A stretch of 64,000 nucleotides of DNA from Gemmatimonadota bacterium (GTDB taxonomy: Bacteria; Gemmatimonadota; Gemmatimonadetes; Palauibacterales; Palauibacteraceae): assembly GCA_029262175.1 (NCBI GenBank), contig JAJCZV010000235.1, forward strand, positions 3,014 to 67,013, written 5' to 3'. Positions 41,591-60,621 of the stretch are shown here, piece after piece. Below the pieces are notes generated by a model. The model saw nothing but the letters and a program-made list of their open reading frames with translations, made no database searches and was not told the origin of the DNA. The translations under genes were made by a program, and so were the position numbers. Position 1 is the stretch's first letter, and every line of letters starts with the position of its first letter.

Positions 41591-41654
41591 CACCGGGGAC
41601 CATGGGCCAGCCGTCACCTCGAGTGACGGCTGGCCGCCCTGAAGACGGAGGTGC

Positions 41655-43886
41655 GTGATGCAGGACGAGCGGCACCTGGGTCTTTTTGGGGCTACGGCGA
41701 TCGGCGTAGGTGCGATCGTCGGCGGCGGCGTCCTCGCCTTAGCCGGCGTCGCGTTCGCGACGACCGGTCCCAGCGCCATCCTCGCGTTCGCTCTCAACGG
41801 CGGCATCGCGCTTCTCACCGCCATCAGCTTTGCCAGTCTCGCTCGACGATTCCCGGAATCGGGCGGCACTTACACATACGCAAAGAAAGTCCTCTCGATC
41901 GAAGTGGCGTTTGTGGTCGGGTGGGTGGTTTGGTTTGCGTCGATCGTGGCGGGCGTGTTGTACGCGCTTGGTTTTTCCGCCTTCATGGTCGAGGGGATCG
42001 AGCGGGCCTTGGCTGTGGGCGGGTTCTCGATCGACTGGCTGGACACGACCGTGATGCGTGCCGGCTTGGCCTTCTTGGCGGTCGGCTTTTACACCGTCAT
42101 GCTGGTTCGACGGTCAGCGGGAGGCGGCAATGCGGCGACCATCGGCAAGGTCATCGTTTTCGCGCTTCTGCTCCTCGGCGGTGCCTGGGCTTGGCTGGGA
42201 CCGTCGCCGTCGGAGGTCATGGGCCGGCTTACGCCGTTCTTTTCCAGGGGCCCCATCGGCCTCGTCCAGTCGATGGGTTACACGTTCATAGCGCTACAGG
42301 GCTTCGACCTCATCGCAGCCGTGGGCGGGGAAGTTCGCGACCCTTCCCGAAACATCCCCAGGGCGATGTACCTCTCTTTGGCGATCGCACTGGTCATCTA
42401 TCTACCGCTTCTCTTTTTCATGGCGACGGTGGGCGCACCTGCGGAGGGTCTTACAGCGACCGCCCAGGAGAATCCGGAGAGCTTGGTCGCTGCGGCCGCT
42501 GGCCGCTTCATGGGCCCGGTCGGCTACTGGCTGGTCATCGGAGCCGGGATCCTGTCGATGCTCTCCGCCCTACAGGCGAACCTCTACGGCGCGTCACGGG
42601 TCGCTTTCGCCATGGCCCGCGATCGCACGCTTCCCCGCAAGCTCGGCCAAATGCGGGGAGCCAGCGGGACGCCAGCAGTCGCCATCTTGGTGACAGGCGC
42701 GATGATCGCAACGATCGCGGTGGCGGTCGGAGACGTCGCGGCTGCGGGCGCCGCGTCGAGTCTCATCTTCTTGATTTCGTTCGCGATGGTTCATTGGTCG
42801 GCAGGCTTGGCCACCCGTCGCTCGGGTGGAGAACGCCTGCCTGTCGTTCCCATCGTGGGCGCCGCGCTGTGCCTCGGCCTGGCCGTCTTTCAGGCCTTTG
42901 CGGTTCGAGAGGCCGGAGTGGTCGCCGTTTCGTGGCTGGGCATCGGCGTCGTGCTGTATCTGACGTTGCTCGCGCCTGGGGCTCAACTCGCGGATGTGAG
43001 CGCGGAGGCTCGGGACCCCAACCTCGCGCGTCTTCGAGGACGAAGCCCGCTCGTCCTCGTCCCGATCGCGAATCCGGACAGTGCGGCGAGCCTCGTCGAT
43101 GTGGCGGCCACCGTTCGCACGCCGGGGGCCGGACGGATCCTCCTGCTTTCGGTCGTGCGCACGCCCAGCGACCCGCTGCAGCTCGAAGAACTGTTGTTGC
43201 CGGATGCTCAGAAGATCCTCGGCGAGTCCTTGCAGCGCAGTCTCGAGAGCTCTCTCATCGCCGAGACCTTGTTTACGATCGCGACCGATGTGTGGGGAGA
43301 GATCGCTCGCGTGGCCCAGGGGCACGGGTGTGAAACCGTGCTGCTCGGATTCCCAAAACTGACGACCCCCGGCCTCGAGGCGAAGCTCGAGAGCCTGGTC
43401 GCGTCGGTGGATGCCGACGCGGTCGTGGTGAGCGCACCTCCACGTTGGCGGATGTCGGAAGCCAAGCACGTCCTGGTTCCGCTCGGGGGGCGACGCGACC
43501 AGAGCCGACTACGCGCTCGCCTTTTGTCGAGCCTGTCCCGTTCACAGGAGCGGTCGGTCACGTTTCTTCGCACACTGCCAACGGCAACGGCACCGGAGAC
43601 CCGAGTACGACTCGAACGCTTCGCCCACGATCTCGCGCGCGACGAGGCAGCCGGCCCGTACAACGTCGAGATCGTCTACACCGACGAAGCCGAGAAGACG
43701 ATCATCGAGCACGCCTCCAGAGCGGACTTGGTGGTGATGGGAATGAGGGGACGCAACCAAGGGAAACCCGGTCTAGGCGGACTATCCAAGGCCATCGCGC
43801 GCGAAACTGACGTCCCCCTGATCCTGATCGGACGCCGACCTACCCGCACGCTCAGCATGCCGACCCTGACATTCCGCGGACGATAG
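41655..43886 (+). CDS. APC-family amino acid/polyamine permease fused to C-terminal tandem universal-stress-protein (UspA) domains
   Basis: Twelve TM helices in the APC layout (GATAIGVGAIVGGGVLALAG...). The ~300 aa C-terminus carries two Usp-like alpha/beta domains (…VLVPIANPDSAASL… / …HVLVPLGGRRDQ…VVMGMRGR). Confidence 0.75.
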   Translation: MMQDERHLGLFGATAIGVGAIVGGGVLALAGVAFATTGPSAILAFALNGGIALLTAISFASLARRFPESGGTYTYAKKVLSIEVAFVVGWVVWFASIVAGVLYALGFSAFMVEGIERALAVGGFSIDWLDTTVMRAGLAFLAVGFYTVMLVRRSAGGGNAATIGKVIVFALLLLGGAWAWLGPSPSEVMGRLTPFFSRGPIGLVQSMGYTFIALQGFDLIAAVGGEVRDPSRNIPRAMYLSLAIALVIYLPLLFFMATVGAPAEGLTATAQENPESLVAAAAGRFMGPVGYWLVIGAGILSMLSALQANLYGASRVAFAMARDRTLPRKLGQMRGASGTPAVAILVTGAMIATIAVAVGDVAAAGAASSLIFLISFAMVHWSAGLATRRSGGERLPVVPIVGAALCLGLAVFQAFAVREAGVVAVSWLGIGVVLYLTLLAPGAQLADVSAEARDPNLARLRGRSPLVLVPIANPDSAASLVDVAATVRTPGAGRILLLSVVRTPSDPLQLEELLLPDAQKILGESLQRSLESSLIAETLFTIATDVWGEIARVAQGHGCETVLLGFPKLTTPGLEAKLESLVASVDADAVVVSAPPRWRMSEAKHVLVPLGGRRDQSRLRARLLSSLSRSQERSVTFLRTLPTATAPETRVRLERFAHDLARDEAAGPYNVEIVYTDEAEKTIIEHASRADLVVMGMRGRNQGKPGLGGLSKAIARETDVPLILIGRRPTRTLSMPTLTFRGR

Positions 43887-44002
43887 CTAGCGACCCAGCG
43901 AATCGCGCGGTCCGGGTGTTCTCCGGTAGCGTTGCCCCGTTGAGGAGACCGTTCTGAGTCGACCGACGTTCGGCGAAATCCCATTGCGACAGAGGAAAAC
44001 CT

Positions 44003-46930
<2,928 letters not shown>

Positions 46931-47017
46931 CCATCGGTGGCCGGTTGCCTGGCGGGGAACCTCGGATCGGCGCGCGGTTACCTCGAAGGACACGACCGTT
47001 GTAAGAAGGATGCGACA

Positions 47018-47464
47018 ATGACAAGCCACGAAGTCGCCGAAGGGACGCTCCCGGGCGCATCCGCGCTCGGGGAGTTTCTGTATCCGATGCCGGCGGAGAG
47101 ACGCGCGGTCCCGATCATTCGCTGGTGGGAATCTCGCCGAGTTCATTTCAACCTCGTTCTCGGCGGGTCGGGCGCCGTGTCGCTTGGCGTGATCGCCCTT
47201 TTTCAGTCGCTTCCGCCGTTCGCCGAGAGCTTCGCGTTCCCGCTGTTCGGAATCGGCATGTACACGCTACTCGCGAACTTCTGTTATAGCCTTGGGCCGG
47301 CGACCGAAATCCTGCTCGAAAAGATGGGGCGTGGACGGCTGCTTCCGACGGGGCCGCTGCTGTTCCGGGCAGGCCTGACGTTCACCATCGGATTGACGTT
47401 GGTGCTACCCGCCATTCTCATGACGATGGAATACGTGTTCCGCATCCTCAACTGGATCTCGTAG
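47018..47464 (+). CDS. Small integral membrane protein, unknown function
   Basis: AAGGA RBS. Three or four predicted TM helices. No recognisable domain. Confidence 0.4.
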   Translation: MTSHEVAEGTLPGASALGEFLYPMPAERRAVPIIRWWESRRVHFNLVLGGSGAVSLGVIALFQSLPPFAESFAFPLFGIGMYTLLANFCYSLGPATEILLEKMGRGRLLPTGPLLFRAGLTFTIGLTLVLPAILMTMEYVFRILNWIS

Positions 47465-47503
47465 CGTCGAACGCGGATCTCTCTTGGCGTCGGACGCGGA
47501 CCG

Positions 47504-48748
47504 CTAGTCCGTCGTGATCGAGTGGGGGCCGATGTCGCTCAAGGCGGGAGTGCCGACCGCACGCATCGTGAGCGCGAGTTCGTCGGTCAGGATCTCGAGC
47601 GCACGTTCCACGCCTTCTTGACCAAACGCGCCGAGCCCCCAAAGATAAGGGCGCCCGATCGCCACGGCTGTGGCACCGCGCGCGATCCCTTTGAAGAGGT
47701 CGCTTCCGCGGCGAAAACCACTGTCGACGATGATCGGGATCCGACCCGACACCGCGTCAGCGATCTCCGGCAACGCGTCGATGGTCGCGCGACCGTCTCC
47801 CTCGGCCCGTCCACCGTGGTTCGAGACCCAGACCGCGTCGATGCCGTGTTGAACCGCGAGCGCCGCGTCTTCCCGTGTGACGATTCCTTTGACGATGATC
47901 TTCTGGTCGGTGATGTCGCGCAGACGTTGGATGTATTCCCACGTCATGGTGCGGCCGCCACTGTCCGCAGCGCCTTGGGGAAGGCCGCGAAGCATGGGTT
48001 TCACCGGATCGGCTCGTCCACCGCTCCGATGGCAGGTGTCGCAATTCCGATCATCGATCCGGGCGTACCGTTCCACGGTGAGGCGGTTGCTCCCGCCATT
48101 GAGGTCGACGGTCAGCACGATGACCGGGCAACCGGCGGCTCGCACTCGGTTCACCAGCGCCACGTTGGCCTCCCAGTTTTGCGGCGCATAGAGCTGATAC
48201 CAGACCGGCTCGCCTCGAGCCTCGTTCACCTCTTCGACGGCGGTCGAGCTGACGGTGGAAAGTGTCTGGAGATGCGTGCGCGCGGCTGCGGCGCGCGCGG
48301 TCGCGAGTTCGCCATCGGGGTGAAACGCCTTCTGACTCCCGGCCGGAGCAACCATCAGCGGCGTCGGCCATTCGCGACCGAACAGATTGACCCGCATGTC
48401 GATGTTGGAGACATCGATCAACCGTCGGGCCCGCAGGTTGATCCGTTCGAGCCCGGCTCGATTGTTCGCCTGGGTCTCTTCCCCGTCGACGCCCGTCTTG
48501 ATATAGCCCCAATGAGCCGTCGGGACCGTAGCCGCCGCGACCTTTTCCAGATCGAATACGTCGAGCGCTTCTTGAGCCGAGGCCACGATCGCGTCGAGTG
48601 CACGCTTCGGAGGTTCCTGAGCGATCAACTCCTCGAGCAGCCCGCCATCCCACGTACCGAGGGCGCCGAGCAGCGGTGTGGCCGCGAGCCAGCGAAGGAA
48701 TTCCCTGCGTTGCACATCCCGCACGTCCGGTCGATCCCGCATGCTCAA
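47504..48748 (-). CDS. TAT-exported FMN-dependent alpha-hydroxy acid dehydrogenase/oxidase (LldD/glycolate oxidase family)
   Basis: TAT signal RREFLRWLAATPLLGALG. FMN_dh motifs include VSNHGGR and the TIM-barrel pattern. Confidence 0.75.
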   Translation of the reverse strand: MSMRDRPDVRDVQRREFLRWLAATPLLGALGTWDGGLLEELIAQEPPKRALDAIVASAQEALDVFDLEKVAAATVPTAHWGYIKTGVDGEETQANNRAGLERINLRARRLIDVSNIDMRVNLFGREWPTPLMVAPAGSQKAFHPDGELATARAAAARTHLQTLSTVSSTAVEEVNEARGEPVWYQLYAPQNWEANVALVNRVRAAGCPVIVLTVDLNGGSNRLTVERYARIDDRNCDTCHRSGGRADPVKPMLRGLPQGAADSGGRTMTWEYIQRLRDITDQKIIVKGIVTREDAALAVQHGIDAVWVSNHGGRAEGDGRATIDALPEIADAVSGRIPIIVDSGFRRGSDLFKGIARGATAVAIGRPYLWGLGAFGQEGVERALEILTDELALTMRAVGTPALSDIGPHSITTD

Positions 48749-48843
48749 CTCCTAACGAGAGGATTCGCAGCCAGGGTGCACTCACCGAGTCCGTGCGTCA
48801 AACGCGAGGCAGGCGTCGCCCCGCCATCGCCCCGACGAATCTC

Positions 48844-50295
48844 TTACGGGTTGAAGGGGCGTCGACGAACTTGATCCAGACAGGTCACGTCCGGGTGACG
48901 TCCTGGTTCGGCAAGAAAGGCCGCCTGAATCCTATTCACGCAATCGGAGTTCTCCAGACTCCCCCAACCATGATGACCGTGGGGTACCGTCACGTGGAGA
49001 GCATTGGGGAGCGTGCGCGCGGCGTCCTCACCCCAGTGAGGTGGGGTCACGGGATCATGGCTTCCGTTGATGATCAAGACGGGAGCCTCCGAAGCCACGG
49101 CGTCGTGAAAATCTGGATCGACCGAGCCCGCCGGCCAGCGGCGACACGCCTCGAAGTGTGAACGCGCCCGCGCGTCGCCCAGAAACGTACCGGCGGCTTG
49201 CTCGTATTCGCCTGGTTCGTTCGCGAACGGAATGTCCTCGGCGCAGGTCACCGATAGATACATCCCCGTCGCCGCCAAGAGGCCGATCGCGTGCGCTCGG
49301 GCTGCGCCGAACTGTCCGAACCCGTCGTAGTTTCCGTCGGTCGCCGCCAAATGGAGCAGGCGAGGGATGTCCCGGGTCGCGCCCGGATCGTACATCATCG
49401 CGCGAAGCGACTCAGCAAAGCCGGCCCGCGTCATGGTGGCATCGACCGGCGCATCCGTGCGAGGGTCTCTAATCGTGACTCCGACGGATTCCCAATCCGC
49501 TTCGACGACCGCGCGGTAGTCAGCTTGCACCGTCGGGAAAGCCGCTGCACAATCGGGCATCTCCGAACAATCTTTGAGGACGCCCCGCAACGCCGCTTCC
49601 GCGTCGAGCGCCATTCCATCGGGCATCACCTGACCCAAGGACATCGAGCCGTTGAGTACCGCAGAGCGAACGTGTGTTCCGTGACGCCGCAAGTAGACGA
49701 GCGATGCGCGCGTTCCGTAGGACGTTCCCCAGAGGTTGATCTGATCGTGACCGAGCGCTTGGCGGAGATCCTCCACGTCGTCGAGGGAGAATGGCGACGT
49801 GTACTTCGTGAGGTCGGCGTGTTTGGAGAGGTCTTCGACACAGTCGGCGATATGATCCGGATCGAAAATCTGCCCAAGATACACCTCGACCGGCGCATCT
49901 TCGTCGAAGAGGCATTTCAATCCGTTGGAACGACCCGTGCCCCGTTGGTCCATCATCACGATCGTTCGGTGCTCTCGGTGCTCCGATCCGATCCAACCGC
50001 CCGCGGTACCGGTGGCGGCCGACCCCGGCCCCCCCGTCAGAACGTAGATGGGATCAGGCTCCGGGTTCGGGCCCGTCGCGGGCAGGATCATGTAGAAGAG
50101 ATCCAGAGTGCGACCCGATCGCGCATCCCGATCTTCCCAAACGGTCAGCTTCCCGCAGACCGCATCACTTTCGCTCGTGGCGCCTTCGCATGAGGCGACG
50201 TTGGATCGCGGCACCGCCTGCGCGGCCAACGAGGTTGCCAAAAGGCACGAGGGTATCAAGAGGGCGAGGCATCGTGTGGCGGATGAGGATGGCAC
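48844..50295 (-). CDS. Secreted alpha/beta hydrolase (S33 prolyl aminopeptidase / TAP-like family)
   Basis: GTGSYGT... context GTSYGT is the nucleophile elbow. The proposed GTG/TTG start after a GGGAGAG RBS gives a signal peptide PSSSATRCLALLIPSCLLATSLAAQA. The ORF-track extension to 50526 is unlikely. Confidence 0.6.
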   Translation of the reverse strand: MPSSSATRCLALLIPSCLLATSLAAQAVPRSNVASCEGATSESDAVCGKLTVWEDRDARSGRTLDLFYMILPATGPNPEPDPIYVLTGGPGSAATGTAGGWIGSEHREHRTIVMMDQRGTGRSNGLKCLFDEDAPVEVYLGQIFDPDHIADCVEDLSKHADLTKYTSPFSLDDVEDLRQALGHDQINLWGTSYGTRASLVYLRRHGTHVRSAVLNGSMSLGQVMPDGMALDAEAALRGVLKDCSEMPDCAAAFPTVQADYRAVVEADWESVGVTIRDPRTDAPVDATMTRAGFAESLRAMMYDPGATRDIPRLLHLAATDGNYDGFGQFGAARAHAIGLLAATGMYLSVTCAEDIPFANEPGEYEQAAGTFLGDARARSHFEACRRWPAGSVDPDFHDAVASEAPVLIINGSHDPVTPPHWGEDAARTLPNALHVTVPHGHHGWGSLENSDCVNRIQAAFLAEPGRHPDVTCLDQVRRRPFNP

Positions 50296-50459
50296 CAAGA
50301 TCTCTCCCGTTTGAGTTGAGCTAGACTCTACGCTTCGGCCCCGCTCGAAGATTCCAGGCGTCGTGTTCCCAAGGTAATGGCCGTCGTCCGCCGCCGGCGC
50401 CATTCTTCGTCTTGGTCGACGTCGACAGATCTCCCGGTTCACTCGATCTAGGAGGCGGC

Positions 50460-50891
50460 ATGAGCACATCGGTTTCCCTCCGGGTGGGGCTGATGACCGC
50501 GATGCTGGCAGCTGCGTGCACCGCATCCTTTGGCGGCCTCGGCGGCCCGGACGCGGGGATCTCCGGCGCGATTGCCGAGCGGGACCCCGATCCGAGTGCC
50601 GAAGGTCAACGACAGCAGACCCTTAGAGACGAACTCCGGCGTTTGTTTCTTGCAGAGGAACGGTACTACGCCGACCAAGGCACCTACACGGATGAGATCT
50701 TTCATCTGATCGGCGACTCCGGTTCCGGGTTCAGGACCGATGGACGCGTCCGCTTTTCGATCCCGGAGGCCCATACGGAAGGCTTCTCGGCGATCGCCGG
50801 TCACGCCCCATTCGAATGCGCCCTTTTCGTGGGCGAAGCGAACCCACCTCGCGGGTATGTTTCCATCCCTGGAGTTATCGAGTGTCGCTAG
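50460..50891 (+). CDS. Lipoprotein, unknown function
   Basis: GGAGG RBS. Lipobox LAAAC in MSTSVSLRVGLMTAMLAAACTAS. Confidence 0.4.
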   Translation: MSTSVSLRVGLMTAMLAAACTASFGGLGGPDAGISGAIAERDPDPSAEGQRQQTLRDELRRLFLAEERYYADQGTYTDEIFHLIGDSGSGFRTDGRVRFSIPEAHTEGFSAIAGHAPFECALFVGEANPPRGYVSIPGVIECR

Positions 50892-50929
50892 ACGAAAAGT
50901 GACTCCGGGTGAACGCGCCCAACCTCGAT

Positions 50930-51682
50930 TCAGATATCGCACGCAGCCGACATGGAAGCGATCGTCGCTGGAGGACTCGCGTCAGTAAAGATGGAGTAGC
51001 GAAGCGCGCAACAAGCCTCTTCACAGACCCGATCGGGCGCCCACCGAACGAGGATGTGATCCACCGCTTGTCCCTCGAACCGAAATGCGTACTTCTCATC
51101 GATCGCCCACAGGGCTCGCGCGCCAGGTGACAGCGCTTCCCAGCTACTCCGGACGGTCTGCGGCAAGAATTCACGGTCCAGGCGCGCAGTTTGGGCCACT
51201 CGAACCGCTCGCGGGTTTTCAAAGACCACGACGAATCCCGCCGAGCCCAGGGAGGAGGGTTCGAGCGGAATGCCGACGACCGAGCCGTATGAAATGCGAT
51301 CGACAAGTTCGCCATTCCGAGCGAAGCTGAACCGCACCGCGCCTTTCAGGTGGTCCGCGCGTACCTCTTGAACACCATCATCGGAGATGTAATAGAAGTG
51401 CTGCTCCCGCAGCGACTCGGGTACGGGAGCTTCAAACACCAACTCCGCGTCGTCGAACATGTTCTGTTGTTCACGAAGCATCGTAAGAAATTCGGGCGTC
51501 GCATCGGAGAGTTCAAAGTTGGTCCACTCCTTCGGCGCCACAATGCCCCAATCGATGGGTTCCGCGGCGTCGAACTCGACTTCGCCGGCCACGAGAAGCG
51601 CGTTGGCGAACACGAGCTCTTGGCGTTCGTGCGCTTGGGCCGTCACGGCGATCAATAGTGCCGCAATGAGTATGGTCACCAA
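50930..51682 (-). CDS. Secreted protein, unknown function
   Basis: Signal peptide MVTILIAALLIAVTAQA. No recognisable domain. Confidence 0.4.
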   Translation of the reverse strand: MVTILIAALLIAVTAQAHERQELVFANALLVAGEVEFDAAEPIDWGIVAPKEWTNFELSDATPEFLTMLREQQNMFDDAELVFEAPVPESLREQHFYYISDDGVQEVRADHLKGAVRFSFARNGELVDRISYGSVVGIPLEPSSLGSAGFVVVFENPRAVRVAQTARLDREFLPQTVRSSWEALSPGARALWAIDEKYAFRFEGQAVDHILVRWAPDRVCEEACCALRYSIFTDASPPATIASMSAACDI

Positions 51683-51868: not shown

Positions 51869-54800
51869 ATGTATCGGCTGCTCAGGATCGTCGCCCTCGG
51901 CGTTCTCGCCACCACAAGCTCGCTGGATGCCCAGGCCACTCGGCTACTGAGACAGCCGAGCGCGAGCGCGAGCCACGTCGCCTTCACGTACGGCGGCGAC
52001 CTGTGGACGGCGCCGATTTCGGGCGGGCGGGCACTCCGCATCACGAGCACGGCGGCGGTCGAATCGGGGCCGTACTTCTCGCCTGACGGCGAATCGATCG
52101 CGTTCACTTCAAACCGATCGGGAGTGGATGCGGTCTATGTGGTATCGGCCGATGGGGGCACACCGCGACGTTTGACCTGGTATCCGGCCGATTCGTTTGC
52201 GCGCGGATGGTCACCGGACGGATCGCAGGTGCTCTACGCCTCCACGCGCGAGACGGCACCCACGGGTTACGAGCGACTCTGGACGGTCTCCTCCGACGGT
52301 GGGCCGAGCACCCTGCTTCCCGCTCCGTGGGCGCACTCGGGCTCGTTCTCGCCCGACGGCCGCCAATTGGTCCTGGATCGCATGTCGCGCTGGGATGTCG
52401 AGTGGCGCGACTACCGTGGCGGACAAAACACGCCCTTGGTGATTCTCGACCTCGCATCGCTCGAGGAGACGCGCCTGCCGAACGAGCGCACCACCGACAC
52501 ACAGCCGGTGTGGCTCGGGGGTCGAATCTTCTTCGTCTCCGACCGCGACTGGGCATACAACGTTTGGTCGTTTGACCCATCCTCGGGCGCCACCGCACAG
52601 CTGACGGAATTCGAGGGAATGGAAGTCAAGCATCTCTCCGGTAACGGGCAGATGCTGGTGTTCGAGCAGGGCGGTTGGATCCATACGCTCGACCCCGCGA
52701 CGGGCACGAGCCGACAGCTCGATATCGAGGTTGTGGGAGATTTTCCGTGGGCCGAAACGCGTTGGGAGGATGTCAGCAATCGAGCCACGAGCGCGTCGCT
52801 TTCGGCGACCGGTCAACGAGCCCTGTTCGAGGCCCGCGGCGAGATCTTCACCGTACCCGTCGAGCACGGCGACGCCCGTAACCTGTCGCAATCTTCCGCT
52901 GCTCACGACAAGTCCCCCATCTGGTCGCCCGATGGCAGCCAGGTCGCCTGGTTCCGCGATGCGGGAGATGGCTACTCGCTCGTCGTCTCACCTCAGGAGG
53001 GCATGGGCGAGCTCCGCACCATCTCTCTCGGCGAGTCGAAGCTCGGCTGGGAGGCCACCTGGTCGCCCGATGGTGCGCGCATCGCGTTCGTGGATGATGA
53101 CGTTCGCGTGCGCGTGATGGACGTCGAGTCTGGAGAGATCCTGACCGCTGACGCAGGGGGGACCAATCTCGAGCGGGGCGGGATGGGGCTCTCCTGGTCG
53201 CCCGATTCGAAATGGCTCGCCTATTCGAAGTCCTTCGCCAACGGGTTCCGTCGGATCGTGGCGTGGAATGTCGATACGAACCGCGCCACACCGCTGACCG
53301 ATGTGATGGCGGATGCGGGCGAGCCCGCGTGGGATCGCGATGGGCGACACCTCTACTTCGTGGCCAGCACCGACCTCGCACTCGGGTCGGGTTGGGCCAA
53401 CACCAGTTCGATTCGATCGAGCCCCACCTATGCCGCGTATGTGATGGTGCTACGGGACGATGATCCGACCCCCTTCCCCCTCCGCAGCGATGAGGAACCG
53501 GCGGAGACGAACGAAGAGGGGGAGTCAGAAGCGGGCGACGACGATAGTGGTGGTGGAGACGCCGCTGGCGACGACGCCGAGTCGGAAGACGGAGACGCCG
53601 TCGAGGTGAGGATCGACCTAGACGGAATCGATCGACGCGTGATCGCGCTTCCGCTGCCGGTTCGCCGGTACGTGTCGGTGACCGCCGGCCCCACCGGCTC
53701 GGTGTTCATCGGTGAGGCTGTTCCGAATCAGCCTGGTTTGACGCTTCACAAGTTCGAACTGGAAGAGCGCGAGGCATCGGAGTTCGCGAGCCGAGCGGCT
53801 TCCGTTTCGGTATCGGCCGATGGTAAGAAACTGCTGTATCGCTCGGGCCAATCCTGGCACGTCGTCGACACGGCGCGACCACCTGAGTCCGGCTCCGGCA
53901 CCCTCGAAGTCAACTTACGCATGCAACTCGATCGGACGGCCGAGTGGGGCCAGATGTTCGACGAGGCTTGGCGCTACGAGCAGGAGTATTTCTACGATCC
54001 GGGCATGCATGGCAACGATTGGGAGGCGGTCCGGAATCGCTATCGTCCGCTCGTGTCATCCGTCCGGCACCGTAGCGACTTGAGCTATCTGATGGACCAG
54101 ATGAACGGGGAGCTCTCGGTGGGGCATTCGTTCGTCTTTGGCGGCGACTTCCCGGCGGTCGACACGGTTCGCGTCGGGCTGCTCGGGGCAGATTTTGTCG
54201 CGAATCAAGGCCGATGGCAGATCCGACGCATATACACGTTCGAGAGCTGGAACCCGGGTTTGTCGGCCCCTCTGGATCAGCCTGGAGTGCGCGCCGAACA
54301 GGGCCACTATCTGGTGGGCGTGAACGGTCGCGAACTGACCGACGCCTCCGACCCCTATCAATTTCTCGATGGGACCGGTGGCGTCCAAACGGTGCTCCAC
54401 CTAAACGATCGTCCCTCGATGGAGGGTCACTGGACGGTCACCGTCGAACCCATCGGGTCGGAGTCTCAGCTTCGTCAACGTGCATGGGTAGAGGACAACC
54501 GGCGGCGGGTCGACGAACTGTCCGGCGGCCGCCTCGCGTACGGGTGGATCCCCAACACCGGCGGATCGGGTGTGGTCTCGTTCGATCGCTATTACTTCGC
54601 GCAGCAAGATCGCGAAGGCGCGGTGATCGATGAGCGGTTCAATGGTGGAGGCAACCTCGATGACTACATGGTGGACTACATGACGCGCGACCTGCGTGCC
54701 GCCATCACGAATGAGGTGCCGAACGGTCGACCGCTGAGAATTCCCCAAGGCGTTCATGGCCCCAAGGCGCTCCTCATCAATGAACTCGCCGGTTCGGGCG

Positions 54801-55156
54801 GCGACTACTTTCCGTGGGCGTTTCGCCAACAACAGGTTGGCCCGCTCATCGGCGCGCGAACCTGGGGCGGCCTCGTGAAGTCATCTGTTCACTACTCGCT
54901 GATCGACGGCGGCGCTTTGACCGCGCCGGATAACGCGGTGTTCGACCCGGCGAACAACGTTTGGGTCGCCGAGAACGAAGGGGTGCCACCGGACATCGAA
55001 GTGTTGCTCGATGCGCGTTCGGCCGCCGAGGGACGAGACCCGCAACTCGAGCGAGCGGTTGAAGAGCTGCTGAGGATGCTCGAAGCCGCCCCCGCACAAA
55101 CCGTCACCCCGCCGCCATTCTCGCGACCATCTCGGCGGCGGTCGGGCGGCAGATAG
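51869..55156 (+). CDS. Tricorn protease homolog (S41 family; TolB-like beta-propellers + PDZ + C-terminal peptidase)
   Basis: Signal peptide MYRLLRIVALGVLATTSSLDAQA. Repeated WSPDG/FSPDG propeller blades. The C-terminal S41 domain has ELAGSGGDYF and TWGG contexts. An internal acidic low-complexity insert is present. Confidence 0.75.
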   Translation: MYRLLRIVALGVLATTSSLDAQATRLLRQPSASASHVAFTYGGDLWTAPISGGRALRITSTAAVESGPYFSPDGESIAFTSNRSGVDAVYVVSADGGTPRRLTWYPADSFARGWSPDGSQVLYASTRETAPTGYERLWTVSSDGGPSTLLPAPWAHSGSFSPDGRQLVLDRMSRWDVEWRDYRGGQNTPLVILDLASLEETRLPNERTTDTQPVWLGGRIFFVSDRDWAYNVWSFDPSSGATAQLTEFEGMEVKHLSGNGQMLVFEQGGWIHTLDPATGTSRQLDIEVVGDFPWAETRWEDVSNRATSASLSATGQRALFEARGEIFTVPVEHGDARNLSQSSAAHDKSPIWSPDGSQVAWFRDAGDGYSLVVSPQEGMGELRTISLGESKLGWEATWSPDGARIAFVDDDVRVRVMDVESGEILTADAGGTNLERGGMGLSWSPDSKWLAYSKSFANGFRRIVAWNVDTNRATPLTDVMADAGEPAWDRDGRHLYFVASTDLALGSGWANTSSIRSSPTYAAYVMVLRDDDPTPFPLRSDEEPAETNEEGESEAGDDDSGGGDAAGDDAESEDGDAVEVRIDLDGIDRRVIALPLPVRRYVSVTAGPTGSVFIGEAVPNQPGLTLHKFELEEREASEFASRAASVSVSADGKKLLYRSGQSWHVVDTARPPESGSGTLEVNLRMQLDRTAEWGQMFDEAWRYEQEYFYDPGMHGNDWEAVRNRYRPLVSSVRHRSDLSYLMDQMNGELSVGHSFVFGGDFPAVDTVRVGLLGADFVANQGRWQIRRIYTFESWNPGLSAPLDQPGVRAEQGHYLVGVNGRELTDASDPYQFLDGTGGVQTVLHLNDRPSMEGHWTVTVEPIGSESQLRQRAWVEDNRRRVDELSGGRLAYGWIPNTGGSGVVSFDRYYFAQQDREGAVIDERFNGGGNLDDYMVDYMTRDLRAAITNEVPNGRPLRIPQGVHGPKALLINELAGSGGDYFPWAFRQQQVGPLIGARTWGGLVKSSVHYSLIDGGALTAPDNAVFDPANNVWVAENEGVPPDIEVLLDARSAAEGRDPQLERAVEELLRMLEAAPAQTVTPPPFSRPSRRRSGGR

Positions 55157-55164
55157 GTGGTCGT

Positions 55165-56793
55165 TTGAAGACTCTCAGGGATCTGCGAAACTACCTTCGG
55201 TTCTTGGCGGGGTTGCCGCGGTTTCTACACCGAAGCATGACGATCGAGGAGGCCCGCGAGGTGCTCCATCGACGCATGGCCGAGCGCGAGAAGACGTTTT
55301 TGTCGACGCTCGAACAGTGTGTGCTGAACAATCGACATAGCCCCTACCCTGCCCTGTTCGAACATGCGGGCTGCGAGCTCGGCGACGTGGTCGAGGGGGT
55401 CGGCCAAGACGGCATCGAGCACACGCTGGAGACGCTTCGAGACGCCGGCGTCTACGTCACCTTCGAGGAGTTCAAAGGCCGGGCCCCCATCATCCGTTCC
55501 GGGCGGGAGATACCGGTCACGGCCGAATCGTTCGACAACCGTTCACTGAGTCGCTACTACCAGATGTCGACGGGCGGGTCCACGGGCGCGGGACGCGCGG
55601 TCGCCGTCGATCTGGATCACATGTGGGCGAGGGTCCCAGACCACATCGTCGCGGACACGATCCAGGGCTTCTACGGGAACCCGCAGGCGATTTGGTTCGA
55701 CGGGCTCCCGGGAAACGGTCTGAACTCCATGCTCATGCGGATCCCTTCGGGGACCGCGGCCGAGCGATGGTTTTCGCCCACCATGGGTCGCGACTCGCGA
55801 CCGGCACTCAAGTTTCAACTGGCCCAGGCGGGAATCCTCGCTGTGGCGCGACTCTCCTCGAAGGCTCCAGCGCCAGAGCCGGTGCGGCTGGATGAGGCGG
55901 AGATCATTGCCCGATGGGCCGCCGACGCCCTTGAACGCGCCGGGGCGTGTGGGATCCGAACCATGATGAGTCGGGCGCTTCGGATTTGTTTGGCGGCTCA
56001 AGAGCTCGGAATCGATCTCACCGGGGTCACGCTCTCCGGCGGCGGAGAACCGCCGACCGACGCAAAGGTCGCCGCAGTAAGAAAGACCGGCGCGCGCTTG
56101 ATGTCGAACTACAATTTCCAGGAGGCCGGACCGATCGGCCACATGTGCATGAACGGGGTGGAGACCAACGATCAGCACCTCATGCAGCATCACCTGGCGA
56201 TGATCACGCGCCCTCGGATGGTCCCGGGCTTTGATCGAGAGGTCGATGCCCTTTGCTACACGACGCTCCTACCCAGCGCGCGCAAGCTGATGTTCAACGT
56301 CGAAACCGATGACTACGGCCTGGTCGAAACCCGGGATTGCGGGTGTCCCTGGGAGGAGTTCGGCTTCACGACCCATATTCGTGGCATCCGAAGTTTTCAG
56401 AAGCTGACCGGCGAAGGCGTCACGCTGGTCGGAAACGAGATGGTGCATATACTCGAGGACGTGTTACCGACTCGGTTCGGAGGGACGCCGCTCGACTATC
56501 AACTCCACGAGGAAGAAGACGAGCGTGGCTTCACACGGCTTACGGTCGTGGTGAGCCCCAGGGTCGGCGAACTCGATGAGAGCGCGGTCGTAGAGACCGT
56601 TCTCGCCAGCCTGGGGGAAGCCAGCCACGCGGGTGACATCTCTCGCGCGATCTGGGGGCAAGCCGGGTCGCTGCGAGTTCGCAGAGCGGAGCCGACCTGG
56701 ACCACGCGCGGCAAATTGATGCCGCTCCACCTCGAACGGCGGACGCGACCTTCTCGTCCTTCAAGCGAGACTTCCCGAAGCACCTCGAATTGA
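55165..56793 (+). CDS. PaaK / coenzyme-F390-synthetase-like adenylate-forming enzyme (ANL superfamily)
   Basis: ~540 aa with the P-loop-like YYQMSTGGSTGAGRAV (the [ST]xGxTG motif of adenylating enzymes). The start is 9 bp after the tricorn stop. The family assignment is by motif only. Confidence 0.5.
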   Translation: MKTLRDLRNYLRFLAGLPRFLHRSMTIEEAREVLHRRMAEREKTFLSTLEQCVLNNRHSPYPALFEHAGCELGDVVEGVGQDGIEHTLETLRDAGVYVTFEEFKGRAPIIRSGREIPVTAESFDNRSLSRYYQMSTGGSTGAGRAVAVDLDHMWARVPDHIVADTIQGFYGNPQAIWFDGLPGNGLNSMLMRIPSGTAAERWFSPTMGRDSRPALKFQLAQAGILAVARLSSKAPAPEPVRLDEAEIIARWAADALERAGACGIRTMMSRALRICLAAQELGIDLTGVTLSGGGEPPTDAKVAAVRKTGARLMSNYNFQEAGPIGHMCMNGVETNDQHLMQHHLAMITRPRMVPGFDREVDALCYTTLLPSARKLMFNVETDDYGLVETRDCGCPWEEFGFTTHIRGIRSFQKLTGEGVTLVGNEMVHILEDVLPTRFGGTPLDYQLHEEEDERGFTRLTVVVSPRVGELDESAVVETVLASLGEASHAGDISRAIWGQAGSLRVRRAEPTWTTRGKLMPLHLERRTRPSRPSSETSRSTSN

Positions 56794-56806
56794 TGCTCGA
56801 CCAGCA

Positions 56807-57814
56807 GTGCGCCTCCACCCGGATCGCGGCGCCTTGAAGCCGGCGGTCGCGCTCGCCGTTCTGTCCGTGACCTTTGCCGCGTGCGGCCATCGCGATCTTG
56901 AGCAGGACAGACCTCGAATCCGGATCGGGTACACGCGGTACCTGACCATGGCACCCATGTTCGTTGCGGACGCGGCGGGCTTTTTCGAAGAACAAGGCCT
57001 CGACGTCGAGCTCGTTCCCATGCGTAGCGCCGCGACATCGATCCCGGCGCTGACACAAGGCCAGCTCGACGTGGTTCCCGGCCCGATGAGCCCATCATTC
57101 TTTAACGCGATCTACCGCGGCGCGGGAATCCGTCTTGTAGGCGACAAGGGGTCCTACTCGGTCGACAGCTGCTCTCCCACAGCTTTCGTGGTGTCACCCG
57201 CTCTCGGAGCTCAGACCGAGAAAGTGCTCCCGAAACGGGCGAGTTGGGGTCGAGAGCCCTTCTCCGAGTTCAGGGTCGAGCGCGTACTCGCGCACTTCGG
57301 GTTCGACATCGCCGATGTGGAGCCGCACCACGTCCCGCTGGCCACGAGATACGAGGCGGTGGTGGCCGGACGTCTCGATGGCGCGCACTTGAGCGAGCCC
57401 TTCCTGGGTCGGTTCCGCAGCGAAGGCGGACACGTCTGGATCGATCTCAACGAGGTCGTTCCCGGACATCAGTTTTCGGTCTTCGCGTTTGGACCGCGAC
57501 TTCTGGAAGAGGATCGTGAACTCGGACGTCGCGTCGCGATCGCACTTCTAAAAGGCCTGCGTCGCTTCAATCTCGGCAAGACGCCCGAAAACGTAGAGAT
57601 CCTATCCGAAGCACTCGGGTGGGAACGCGAGCTACTCGAGGGTGCGTGTTGGCCAACGATGCGCGACGATGGACGCATCAACTTCGAGAGCATCGACGAG
57701 TTTCAGCGTTGGTCGCTGGAGAAGGGGGATCTCGACGCGCTGCTACAGCCCGCCGAGTACGCGGATTCGACGTTTATGGCTCACGCGAGACGAACGCTGG
57801 ACGGTGCACCTTGA
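56807..57814 (+). CDS. ABC transporter substrate-binding lipoprotein, NitT/TauT (SsuA/NMT1-like) family, copy 1
   Basis: RIGYTRYLTMAPMFVADAAGFFEEQGLDVELVP... is typical of NMT1/SsuA binding proteins. An in-frame TTG at 56834 gives the classic lipoprotein signal MKPAVALAVLSVTFAAC. Confidence 0.7.
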   Translation: MRLHPDRGALKPAVALAVLSVTFAACGHRDLEQDRPRIRIGYTRYLTMAPMFVADAAGFFEEQGLDVELVPMRSAATSIPALTQGQLDVVPGPMSPSFFNAIYRGAGIRLVGDKGSYSVDSCSPTAFVVSPALGAQTEKVLPKRASWGREPFSEFRVERVLAHFGFDIADVEPHHVPLATRYEAVVAGRLDGAHLSEPFLGRFRSEGGHVWIDLNEVVPGHQFSVFAFGPRLLEEDRELGRRVAIALLKGLRRFNLGKTPENVEILSEALGWERELLEGACWPTMRDDGRINFESIDEFQRWSLEKGDLDALLQPAEYADSTFMAHARRTLDGAP

Positions 57815-58791
57815 TCAGGACGACCGTCGTACTGGGGATCGCGGCTTTGATCGGGGCATGTGGAGGTCCGTCAGGAGAGGGAGACAGACCCCAACTCCGT
57901 GTCGGTTTTACCCGGCACCTCACGATGGCGGCGGTGTTCATCACGCACGCGCAGGGGTACTTCGAGGAGCAGGGCCTCGATGTCGAGCTCGTGCCGCTGC
58001 ACGCCACGGCGACCTCGATCCCCGCCTTGGCGCGGGGTCAGCTCGATGTCCTGCCGGGCCCGATGAGCCCGTCGCTGTTCAACGCGATACACCGCGGCGC
58101 TCCGATCCGTATCGTCAGTGACAAGGGCTCGTTCACCAAAGACGGCTGCTCCCACAACGCGTTCATCGTTTCACCTGAAGTCGCGCGCGCCGAAGGCAAG
58201 ATTGCCCTGAAACGAGCGAGTTGGGGTCGCGAGCCTTTCATGCAATTCGCGGCCGAGCGTGCGGTGGAGTACCTGGGGTACGATCTGGACGAGATCGATC
58301 TCACGTTTGTCCCGAACGCCGCGCGGTATGACGCGGTCGTAAGCGGACGGCTGGACGGGGGGCTAATCGGTGAACCGCGGCTCACGCACTTCCGCCGTCA
58401 GGGCGGTGCCGTGTGGGCCGAGACCAATGAAGTACTTCCAGGGCACCAGATCTCGGTCTATGCGTTTGGACCCCGCCTGCTCGAGGAAGACCCGGAGCTA
58501 GGCCGACGCGTATCCATCGCGCTACTGAAGGGAGTCCGACAGTACAACCGAGGAAAAACACCGGAGAATCTGCGGATTCTCGCCGAGGCGTTAGACTGGG
58601 ATCTCGCGCTGCTCCAGGACGTCTGTTGGCCCCCGATGCGAGACGACGGCCTCATCAACGCCGAGAGCATCCGCGAGTTCCAAGAGTGGGCGCTCGAGCG
58701 CGGGGACCTCGACGCGGTCCTCCCCGCGGAGCGCTACTGGGCTCCCTCTTTCGCCGAGCATGCCCGCTCGGTCTTGGACGCGGGCAGGTGA
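57811..58791 (+). CDS. ABC transporter substrate-binding lipoprotein, NitT/TauT family, copy 2 (paralog of copy 1)
   Basis: TTG start overlapping the copy-1 stop (TTGA). Lipoprotein signal MIRTTVVLGIAALIGAC. About 60 % identity to copy 1 over the full length. Confidence 0.7.
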   Translation: MIRTTVVLGIAALIGACGGPSGEGDRPQLRVGFTRHLTMAAVFITHAQGYFEEQGLDVELVPLHATATSIPALARGQLDVLPGPMSPSLFNAIHRGAPIRIVSDKGSFTKDGCSHNAFIVSPEVARAEGKIALKRASWGREPFMQFAAERAVEYLGYDLDEIDLTFVPNAARYDAVVSGRLDGGLIGEPRLTHFRRQGGAVWAETNEVLPGHQISVYAFGPRLLEEDPELGRRVSIALLKGVRQYNRGKTPENLRILAEALDWDLALLQDVCWPPMRDDGLINAESIREFQEWALERGDLDAVLPAERYWAPSFAEHARSVLDAGR

Positions 58792-59027
58792 CCGAAGCGG
58801 GCCGTGAGGTTCGTCGAGCGAGCGTCTTGCGGGTCCCGGGGGTCGCCTGCGCGACCGTGTGCTGGCCGCCGATGCGGAGTGACGGACAGATCAACAGCGC
58901 GAGCATCCTCGAGTTTCAGGAGTGGTCATTCGATCGCGGGCTCCTCGACGCGATCGTCCCGGTGCAGGACTATTGGGCCCCCATCTTCATGGAACACGCT
59001 CGACGCGTCGTCGGGTCGGCACGATGA
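58788..59027 (+). pseudogene. Third substrate-binding-protein copy reduced to its last ~58 codons (remnant), still in-frame and coupled to both neighbours
   Basis: ...CATVCWPPMRSDGQINSASILEFQEWSFDRGLLDAIVPVQDYWAPIFMEHARRVVGSAR aligns with the C-termini of copies 1 and 2. A GTG at 58788 overlaps the upstream stop (GTGA), and the stop overlaps the ATPase start (ATGA). Confidence 0.5.
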
Positions 59028-59833
59028 GCGGCACCCCGCCAGCCACCGCAGGAACGCAAGGCGCACTCGTCTGCGAAGCGGTCTCTCACAAGTACGACAA
59101 AGACGACGGAGAACTCGCAGCGCTCGCGGACGTGGATCTTCAAGTGCAGCCTGGGGAATTCGTCAGCATCGTCGGTCCAAGCGGCTGTGGTAAGACGACG
59201 CTCCTAAAGATCATCGCGGGCCTCATGACGCCTTCGTCGGGCAACGTGAGCTTCCCGGGTCATGCCCAAGATGATCCGCCGCGCAACGGACTGGTGTTTC
59301 AGGAGCACGGCGTCTTCCCCTGGATGACGGTCTTGGACAACGTCGCCTTCGGTCTGGAGATGCGTCAGGTTCCGCGGGTCGAGCGTCAGCAGCGGGCCGC
59401 CGAGTTTATCGAGCGGGTCGGGCTCCAGGAGTTTGGGAGCAGTTATCCGCATCAACTCTCCGTGGGCATGCGTCAGCGCGTGGGAATCGCGCGCGCTTTC
59501 GTGGCAGACGTTCCGATCCTGCTCATGGACGAGCCTTTCGGATCGCTCGACGCGCAGACCAAGATCGTGCTCCAAGAAGAGCTCCTCCGTCTCTGGAGCC
59601 ACGATCGCAAACTCGTCGTGTATGTCACACACGACATCGAGGAGGCCGTGCGACTCGGCGACCGGGTGCTCGTCATGAGTGGCCGGCCCGGACGCATCCG
59701 AGAGGACATCACCGTTCCGTTCGAAAGACCGCGACAGCTGGGGCGCGGCGACCCCGCCGTGTCCGAGCTGGTGTGGCATATCTGGGATCTCCTGCGCGAC
59801 GACGTCCGCAGCGGTCTTTCCTTGCGAGACTGA
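59024..59833 (+). CDS. ABC transporter ATP-binding protein, NitT/TauT (SsuB/TauB-like) family
   Basis: Walker A GPSGCGKTT, signature QLSVGMRQR, Walker B LLMDEPFGSLD. Confidence 0.85.
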   Translation: MSGTPPATAGTQGALVCEAVSHKYDKDDGELAALADVDLQVQPGEFVSIVGPSGCGKTTLLKIIAGLMTPSSGNVSFPGHAQDDPPRNGLVFQEHGVFPWMTVLDNVAFGLEMRQVPRVERQQRAAEFIERVGLQEFGSSYPHQLSVGMRQRVGIARAFVADVPILLMDEPFGSLDAQTKIVLQEELLRLWSHDRKLVVYVTHDIEEAVRLGDRVLVMSGRPGRIREDITVPFERPRQLGRGDPAVSELVWHIWDLLRDDVRSGLSLRD

Positions 59834-60621
59834 TGTCGCGCCGAGAGTCGAATCGTCAAGTGGTCGATTCACGCTGGATACCGGCGATCGTCGTCTCGAT
59901 CGCCCTGGTATCCTGGGAGGGTTCTGCTCGGCTCGGCGCTCTACCAGGCTTTCTGTTCTCCTCTCCGACCATCGTGATCAGCACGCTGGTCCAATCATTG
60001 GCGAGCGGAGAGATGTTCCGGCACATCGCGGCCACGCTCCTTCGAGTGATTCCGGGACTGCTGCTCGGCGCGATCCCAGGGTTCGCGCTCGGGATCGGCA
60101 TGGGGCTCTCGCCGCAGCTTCGTCGGGGGCTGGATCCGCTGCTCGCCGCAGTGCACCCTATCCCGAAGATCGCGATCCTCCCGTTGGTCATGATTTTTCT
60201 GGGGGTCGGCGAGGCGTCGAGGATCGCCGTGGCATCGGTTGCCGCGTTCTTCCCCATGTTGATCAACACGATGGCCGGCATCCGACAGATCGATCCCATC
60301 TATTTTCAGGTCGCCGAAAACTACGGCGCCAGCCGTCTCAAGTTGCTCACGCGCGTGGTTCTGCCAGGCAGCTTGCCGCTGGTACTGAGCGGACTTCGAC
60401 TCGCCGCGAACGTGACGCTGCTGGTGACGATCTCGGCGGAGATCGTGATGGCGGATGTGGGTCTCGGATCGTTCGTTTGGCTTGCCTGGGAGACCCTTCG
60501 CGTCGAACTGCTCTACGCCACGTTGATCGTAATCTCGACGCTGGGGATCACGCTGACCGCGAGTCTTCGGTTCCTACAGAGCGCCCTGGCTCCCTGGGAG
60601 GTCGCTGAGCCACGGAGGTAG
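59833..60621 (+). CDS. ABC transporter permease, SsuC/TauC-like (BPD_transp_1)
   Basis: Six TM helices and the EAA-like loop region. The start overlaps the ATPase stop (TGATG). Confidence 0.8.
   Translation: MSRRESNRQVVDSRWIPAIVVSIALVSWEGSARLGALPGFLFSSPTIVISTLVQSLASGEMFRHIAATLLRVIPGLLLGAIPGFALGIGMGLSPQLRRGLDPLLAAVHPIPKIAILPLVMIFLGVGEASRIAVASVAAFFPMLINTMAGIRQIDPIYFQVAENYGASRLKLLTRVVLPGSLPLVLSGLRLAANVTLLVTISAEIVMADVGLGSFVWLAWETLRVELLYATLIVISTLGITLTASLRFLQSALAPWEVAEPRR

Follow-up and report, generated by a model that had tools for sequence, protein, structure and literature searches.

An unnamed PaaK-like protein family encoded beside the binding proteins of solute importers, with a compact example in a Gemmatimonadota genome

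A 64,000-nucleotide stretch of DNA (hereafter the window) from a Gemmatimonadota bacterium (GenBank assembly GCA_029262175.1, contig JAJCZV010000235.1) carries on its forward strand, at positions 51869-60621, a row of six intact genes and the remnant of another, which overlap or are spaced by no more than 13 nt. They encode a tricorn-like protease, a 542-residue protein with the fold of adenylating enzymes (here X542), two substrate-binding proteins (SBP1 and SBP2) with part of a third, and the ATPase and permease of an ATP-binding cassette (ABC) importer. Does this row form a single functional unit and, if not, which of its genes belong together and what might they do? An earlier note on this DNA had read protease, enzyme and importer as one operon, and its account of open reading frames (ORFs) on one strand with tight spacing and overlaps is accurate. 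The reading favoured here is narrower: X542, SBP1 (with SBP2), the ATPase and the permease, that is, four genes and a duplicate, somewhat probably constitute an import-and-activate module, with the tricorn gene outside it. The features of the row are as follows.

51869..55156, + strand: tricorn-like S41 protease, 1095 aa (Pfam PD40, Tricorn_C1, PDZ_Tricorn and Peptidase_S41)
55165..56793, + strand: X542, member of a PaaK-like ANL family by fold and motifs, 542 aa, TTG start
56807..57814, + strand: SBP1, lipoprotein with the NMT1/TauA fold (Pfam NMT1_2 and NMT1)
57811..58791, + strand: SBP2, intact lipoprotein paralogue of SBP1 (Pfam NMT1_2)
58788..59027, + strand: third-SBP remnant, an 80-codon ORF with homology to SBP 3' ends at 58857-59024 only
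59024..59833, + strand: ABC ATPase of the NitT/TauT type (Pfam ABC_tran)
59833..60621, + strand: ABC permease of the NitT/TauT type (Pfam BPD_transp_1)

This reading is drawn chiefly from the company that X542 homologues keep, in that members of the family adjoin the binding component of unrelated importer classes. GTDB species representatives were scanned for X542 homologues, and 80 of the 349 hits were taken in, giving 78 loci (cited below by L numbers); locus neighbours were mapped by tblastn and clustering, and the clusters were named with Pfam. The sampled lineages include Gemmatimonadota, Binatia, Rokubacteria, Syntrophaceae, Acidobacteriota, Verrucomicrobia, Eisenbacteria and Chloroflexota, among others. 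Synteny was counted over the 81 full-length X542 copies that have at least 1.2 kb of downstream sequence. The next downstream gene encodes an NMT1-like SBP in 47 of these copies, and in nine it encodes a TctC-type SBP and is followed by TctA (TctB was confirmed in the representative locus checked). Elsewhere this position is taken by a gene for a sulfotransferase (six copies), a GT4 glycosyltransferase (five), a phosphodiesterase (two), a MOP flippase (one) or another X542 (one). The gene was not recognised at first in ten copies; two of these proved to encode a distant NMT1-like SBP, one a convergently oriented NMT1-like SBP and one an MFS transporter. An SBP, an ATPase and a permease occur together in 39 of the 81. 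On these counts, the X542 family pairs with two or three unrelated importer classes (ABC importers of the NitT/TauT type, TctABC and, once, MFS).

The association was also checked in reverse. Each SBP homologue at 36-45% identity follows a gene for a protein of about 540 residues without a Pfam domain; no such gene precedes that of a 32% identical SBP homologue from Chloroflexota. X542 and the SBPs co-diverge: distances between X542 proteins follow those between the SBPs (Mantel r = 0.86, a value reached in 0 of 2000 permutations) more closely than those between the ATPases (correlation 0.71). Tandem X542-SBP-X542-SBP arrays are found in L041, L035 and L069, and a single genome can carry up to four paralogous copies of the module. 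The linkage of an adenylating enzyme to a NitT/TauT-type SBP and ABC importer, which the earlier note had noticed in this one genome, is conserved over many phyla, and because of this conservation it is not accidental. The family itself is large: a word-indexed search returned at least 1,429 proteins and an exhaustive search 2,758 clusters at 50% identity (1,099 at E <= 1e-30), all of them without a name. A tblastn search of a plasmid collection found no X542 homologue. One metagenomic protein of 857 aa (P0196) was considered as an X542-SBP fusion; it keeps the SBP signal peptide in mid-protein and was taken as an artefact of stop loss or gene calling.

What kind of protein is X542? Sequence searches found no match to it in Pfam (even at E = 10), NCBIfam (E <= 0.01) or the PDB, and it matches none of the hidden Markov models for PaaK, F390, DVU_1553, BagE or FlxY. 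An AlphaFold (AF2) model built on 34 homologues (pLDDT 86.3, pTM 0.86) has the two-domain adenylate-forming fold of the PaaK-like branch of ANL enzymes. Its top Foldseek matches are BT_0428, PaaK1/2, HCL (2-hydroxyisobutyryl-CoA ligase) and NatL2, with E-values of 3e-17 to 5e-11; for BT_0428 and PaaK1/2 the probability is 1.00 (E = 3e-17 to 3e-15, TM up to 0.63). Residues invariant among the 34 homologues are STGGSTG at 135-141, Y316, E320, G322, D382-D383, C392-G-C394 and G516-K517. E320, D383 and R406, which are invariant or nearly so in the family, correspond to the A5 (TE), A7 (GD) and A8 (Arg) motifs, and these motifs align with 9s3l, the best PDB profile match of X542, albeit a weak one (E = 0.07). 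The aligned fragment of 9s3l itself matches PaaK-like families in NCBIfam. STGGSTG (G138 and G141 invariant) is a candidate for the A3 P-loop, and G516-K517 for the site of the A10 lysine, by pattern and position only. The family also has an invariant Cys/His cluster (C328, H338, C392, C394 and H404). In the weak profile alignment, C328, H338 and C392-G-C394 align with Cys and His residues of 9s3l, and the cluster is a putative metal site, predicted as Cys3His (C328, C392 and C394 with H338 or H404), by which a sub-branch of PaaK-like enzymes might be recognised.

The model and motifs support the assignment of X542 as a PaaK-like enzyme of the ANL fold, very divergent and predicted to be cytoplasmic. 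Compared with PaaK-type ligases (PaaK1/2, 2Y27 and 2Y4O; BT_0428, 4R1M; HCL, 6HE0; NatL2, 6TM4), it has the same two-domain fold with an N-terminal helical microdomain and the TE, GD and Arg motifs, together with the P-loop-like STGGSTG and the C-terminal GK as candidate counterparts of A3 and A10. It differs from them in its low identity (14-17%), in being about 100 residues longer and in its invariant Cys/His cluster. The label "PaaK/F390-like" given earlier thus stands at the level of fold and motifs, whereas the Pfam, NCBIfam and PDB sequence searches do not bear it out. Literature searches on 9S3L, on PaaK with TonB and SBPs and on F390 synthetase with polysaccharide returned nothing specific.

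The importer has an NMT1-fold SBP, an ABC_tran ATPase and a BPD_transp_1 permease, and so belongs to the NitT/TauT type. Its components fall short of the cut-offs for the subfamilies specific for taurine, sulfonate, nitrate or hydroxymethylpyrimidine (HMP). SsuA_fam scores 35.9 bits against SBP1 (NCBIfam cut-off 163.5), and both SBPs stay far under this cut-off. The best NCBIfam matches of the ATPase are TauB (230 bits, cut-off 357) and SaoA (229 bits, cut-off 360), and SaoP, TauC and SsuC match the permease below their cut-offs (TauC 133 against 342 bits); NtrB scores 111 bits against a cut-off of 209. The AF2 model of SBP1 (pLDDT 92) is matched about equally well in Foldseek by TauA, Thi5, ThiY, SsuA, CmpA/NrtA and PqqT, so that no class of ligand could be read from the fold search. 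The window importer thus resembles TauABC, SsuABC, NrtABC, ThiXYZ and PqqT in having the same three components and an NMT1-fold SBP, with an ATPase closest to TauB and SaoA and a permease closest to SaoP and TauC. It differs from them in scoring far below the curated equivalog cut-offs and in its adjacent adenylating enzyme, which none of those systems has; genes related to sulfur, nitrate or thiamine are absent, as are riboswitches of this kind. Scanning the window and six loci with Rfam turned up no riboswitch, nor any other RNA to hint at the ligand.

SBP1 and SBP2 both have lipobox-like N-termini (FAAC and IGAC, judged by eye) and are 59% identical over 323 aa, close to the figure of about 60% given before. 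SBP1 is 61-64% identical to the SBPs of the related loci L081 and L080, against 56% for SBP2; SBP1 is the orthologue of the close relatives' single SBP and SBP2 an older paralogue of SBP1. The ratio of nonsynonymous to synonymous divergence (pN/pS) of SBP2 is 0.23 in comparison with L079, a contig nearly identical to the window. It is possible that the duplicated SBPs serve two related substrates. The N-terminal region of SBP1 has an in-frame 3-nt indel between the window and L079 at 56826-56828, and gene callers place the SBP1 start at 56831 in L079 and at the GTG at 56807 in the window.

The module would work as follows. The lipoprotein SBPs would capture a solute outside the cytoplasmic membrane, and the NitT/TauT-type (type I) ABC translocator would carry it inward. 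X542, in the cytoplasm, would adenylate this same solute, most likely a carboxylic acid, and would then probably pass the acyl group to coenzyme A (CoA) or another acceptor. Adenylation would in this way both trap and activate the solute. TctABC tripartite transporters, the second importer class beside X542, carry carboxylates. A precedent is the cou cluster of Rhodopseudomonas palustris, where CouPSTU (an ABC importer) and TarPQM (a TRAP importer) accompany the CoA ligase CouB; here too, more than one class of SBP-dependent importer is found beside an acid-CoA ligase, which activates the imported aromatic acid (PMC3610893). That cluster has the cou catabolic enzymes and a regulator linked to it, but the window shows no such linkage downstream. 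CouB belongs to the classical AMP-binding family of ligases, and CouP is an SBP of the LivK type.

Several observations weigh against this reading. Besides the lack of linked downstream catabolic genes in the window, the SBPs belong to no characterised clade, and their conserved residues include several Asp and Glu, which would not be expected of a simple anion binder. PaaK-like enzymes are not confined to CoA ligation: NatL2 and BagE/FevW make esters or amides, and F390 synthetase adenylylates a hydroxyl group. In addition, a MOP-family (Wzx-like) flippase is encoded near 28 of the 81 X542 copies, and genes for GT2, a flavin adenine dinucleotide (FAD) oxidase, GT4 or a sulfotransferase accompany the module in about 20; such company speaks for an anabolic or envelope role over a catabolic one. 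One rival explanation, which we consider rather unlikely, takes up this point: the importer would bring in or recycle a building block, and X542 would activate it for attachment to a lipid-linked glycan or glycolipid that the linked glycosyltransferases make and a MOP or ABC flippase flips, the window being a stripped-down version with its partner genes elsewhere. The MOP genes (Polysacc_synt_3 or Polysacc_synt) occur in several gene orders and beside ABC and TctABC importers alike, the genes for GT2, an FAD amine-oxidase-like protein and a small protein with two transmembrane segments (2-TM) form a trio upstream of X542 in about 20 copies, and GT4, sulfotransferase, polysaccharide deacetylase, phosphodiesterase and tetratricopeptide repeat (TPR) proteins are encoded downstream; in L087, an MsbA-like ABC exporter follows the permease. 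However, no MOP, glycosyltransferase or TonB-dependent receptor genes are found in the 64-kb window, and L084 and L085 consist of the bare four genes, which argues that the core works without envelope genes. Moreover, envelope operons are frequent neighbours in these phyla and could be units of their own.

A receptor of the TonB-dependent or OMP_b-brl_4 type is encoded near 31 of the 81 copies, and a cycle of synthesis, export and reimport of a secreted small molecule such as a metallophore has to be considered as well. X542 would then be an amide- or ester-forming synthetase, a MOP or ABC exporter would secrete the product, and the outer-membrane receptor, SBP and ABC importer would retrieve it. 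The ester- or amide-forming activity of the PaaK-like NatL2 and BagE/FevW agrees with such a cycle, as does the presence in one cluster of a TonB-dependent receptor, SBP, ABC importer, exporter and stand-alone adenylating enzyme; some Syntrophaceae loci also contain pyridoxal phosphate (PLP)-dependent, HMGL-like, nitroreductase and MmgE/PrpD genes. Nevertheless, Fur-box-like sites are not enriched over background upstream of the 81 X542 copies, and the SBP and permease belong to the type I NitT/TauT class, whereas siderophore uptake usually relies on components of the FhuD/FecCD type. Neither the window nor its close relatives have a receptor or a same-operon exporter (L084 has a convergent one only), and up to four paralogous copies in one genome also speak against the cycle, which we hold to be quite doubtful. 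On a wider proposal, X542 and its importer would work together with the outer-membrane receptor and a MOP or ABC flippase (in some lineages also with GT2, FAD oxidase and GT4) as a system that has not been described before and is widely distributed in Gemmatimonadota, Binatia and related phyla; an imported or recycled compound would be adenylated by a new Cys3His class of PaaK-like enzyme, and the product would enter, or leave the cell as, an envelope glycoconjugate or secreted metabolite, the window holding the minimal core. This is not implausible, but it falls well short of likely.

Does the tricorn gene share the module's function? The junctions along the row are, in order, gaps of 8 and 13 nt followed by overlaps of 4, 4, 4 and 1 nt, the overlap motifs being TTGA (SBP1/SBP2), GTGA (SBP2/remnant), ATGA (remnant/ATPase) and TGATG (ATPase/permease). 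The longest ORF of the permease starts at 59773; the start at 59833, at the TGATG overlap, is likelier and matches the gene call in L079. No terminator-like site is found at any junction of the row, and a promoter scan detected no sigma-70-like sites, a consensus that tells little in this phylum. Spacing of no more than 13 nt and the absence of a junction terminator fit a single transcript, and the tricorn gene and the module, which starts 8 nt downstream, may be co-transcribed. The protease, X542 and the transporter could be imagined as one pathway, in which peptides or amino-acid derivatives released by the protease, for example, are imported and adenylated. Consistent with this are the 8-nt gap, the X542 ribosome-binding sequence AGGTGG lying over the tricorn stop codon, the lack of a terminator-like site at this junction, the same arrangement in L079, a peptidase-rich neighbourhood with an amino-acid permease and the conserved acidic residues of the SBPs. 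The comparative data largely refute it. From 6 kb upstream to 9 kb downstream of the 81 X542 copies, no tricorn gene is found (0/81), and relatives at 63-72% identity have unrelated upstream genes. In L081 and L085 (72% identity), the gene upstream of X542 encodes an OmpA-domain protein longer than 1,976 aa, in L082 (65%) a TolB-like protein and in L084 (63%, on a 3.58-Mb contig) a divergent gluconate dehydrogenase. The closest relatives thus have a bare X542, SBP, ATPase and permease behind unrelated genes, and in L084 and L085 this unit stands alone. The tricorn arrangement recurs only in L079; at 99% identity to the window, this contig represents the same organism at the level of strains and is therefore no independent evidence for the linkage.

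Because no X542 copy has a tricorn gene nearby and the close relatives differ upstream, the tricorn gene is placed outside the unit, as an apparent chance neighbour in the same orientation; a shared pathway is very unlikely, and the earlier inclusion of the protease in the unit is largely refuted. The earlier note had looked to orthologous genomes to decide whether the genes belong together: in these genomes the six-gene pathway comes apart and the four-gene core stays linked. The protease itself is a complete tricorn homologue. It aligns over its full length with Thermoplasma tricorn (1K32; E = 9e-78), has the complete PD40, C1, PDZ and S41 architecture in the same order (Pfam), and its catalytic His, Ser and Glu align with H720, S939 and E997 of 1K32. 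Unlike the Thermoplasma enzyme, it carries a signal peptide (judged by eye), which suggests that it is periplasmic or secreted. It also has an acidic low-complexity insert, EEPAETNEEGESEAGDDDSGGGDAAGDDAESEDGDA, at residues ~585-620 (window ~53620-53730). Upstream of the tricorn gene, window positions 39737-51682 are rich in peptidase genes and include the following.

41655-43886: amino-acid permease fused to a Usp domain
44003-46930: M14 carboxypeptidase
47504-48748, - strand: flavin mononucleotide (FMN)-dependent dehydrogenase
48844-50526, - strand: S33 TAP-like aminopeptidase

The tricorn gene fits better in this peptidase neighbourhood than with the transporter.

The 80-codon ORF between SBP2 and the ATPase gene is a true remnant of a third SBP gene, as the earlier note had proposed. 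Protein and DNA alignments both match it to SBP 3' ends: its last 56 residues are 63% identical to the C-terminus of SBP2 and 52% to that of SBP1 (BLASTP), so that 56 of its 80 codons are homologous. DNA homology begins near 58855, and the preceding 65 nt align with nothing. The first 23 codons were considered as a degraded signal peptide and lipobox (GVAC; AVAC in L079), a candidate that was rejected, the DNA alignment to SBP 5' ends being unconvincing. The ORF would be what is left of the third gene after deletion of its upstream part, and would since have drifted neutrally. Between the window and L079, 13 of the remnant's 240 nt differ (5.4%); from the synonymous divergence pooled over the flanking genes (0.041), 9.9 differences would be expected. 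Its pN is 0.039, against 0.0043 pooled for the flanking genes (P = 2e-5), and its pN/pS of 0.38 is not different from 1 (P = 0.075). In this two-strain comparison the remnant behaves as neutral or nearly neutral DNA, that is, as a decaying pseudogene. The deletion was not "very recent", as had been suggested; the same remnant is present in L079, at a synonymous divergence of about 4%, and the deletion therefore predates the split between the two strains.

The other suggestion made earlier, that the remnant has been kept by selection as a translational coupler along which ribosomes pass from SBP2 to the ATPase start, appears rather improbable. The GTGA and ATGA overlaps are kept in both strains, the ATPase start also overlaps the upstream stop codon in the relatives L081, L085 and L087, so that coupling appears to be a habit of the family, and a coupler that needs only an open frame would let the remnant sequence drift freely. 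On the other hand, all three forward frames are open over most of this stretch (58626-59027, 58804-59193 and 58922-59833). At 63% GC the preserved frame of the remnant is thus unremarkable and says little about selection, contrary to the weight that had been put on it. All three SBP copies end in NTGA (TTGA, GTGA and ATGA), and the ATGA junction with the ATPase gene is for this reason taken as inherited from the ancestral SBP gene. The comparison rests, moreover, on two closely related strains.

Some further features of the X542 loci were observed. X542 differs from its L079 counterpart at 0.37% of sites (synonymous divergence, pS, 0.007), and the neighbouring genes differ at 1.0-2.7% (pS 0.024-0.09), a mosaic that suggests a recent event of recombination or gene conversion at X542. 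L080 contains at 1783-2997 a chimeric ORF in which X542 residues 1-258 continue into SBP residues 178-335. It is evidently the product of a deletion that spanned an X542-SBP pair of a tandem array, and a case of decay like that of the window remnant. Most Gemmatimonadota loci have a TonB-dependent receptor gene between the SBP and ATPase genes and a Polysacc_synt_3 MOP flippase gene after the permease gene (for example, L001 12684-14888 and L037 12604-14712, with about 30 other loci). In L005, L007, L012, L013, L019, L024-L026, L038 and L055, from Binatia-like and deltaproteobacterial genomes, the trio upstream of X542 consists of a GT2 glycosyltransferase, a 588-aa FAD amine-oxidase-like protein and the small 2-TM protein, and genes for a sulfotransferase, GT4, a 229-aa protein of no assigned function and a 660-aa TPR protein lie 3' of X542. 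These trio-bearing loci may represent an envelope glycoconjugate pathway. In Binatia-like loci, a classical AMP-binding ligase is encoded beside two distant NMT1-like SBP genes, as in L019 (14019-15203, - strand) and also in L025 and L038, on the strand opposite X542; here ANL enzymes and NMT1-type SBPs are paired independently.

The point of interest at this locus is not the tricorn gene or the remnant but a widespread, nameless PaaK-like family that is tightly paired with SBPs. An acid-activating enzyme with an importer is a known kind of arrangement; what is new here is the divergent X542 family, for which there is no Pfam or NCBIfam model. For genome annotation, the tricorn-X542 junction carries the lesson that tight spacing alone is no sign of a shared pathway. 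The family occurs in rarely cultured soil and sediment phyla (Gemmatimonadota, Binatia, Rokubacteria, Eisenbacteria and others). Identification of the ligand would annotate thousands of transporter operons and would reveal a scarce compound that these bacteria take up through dedicated outer-membrane receptors.

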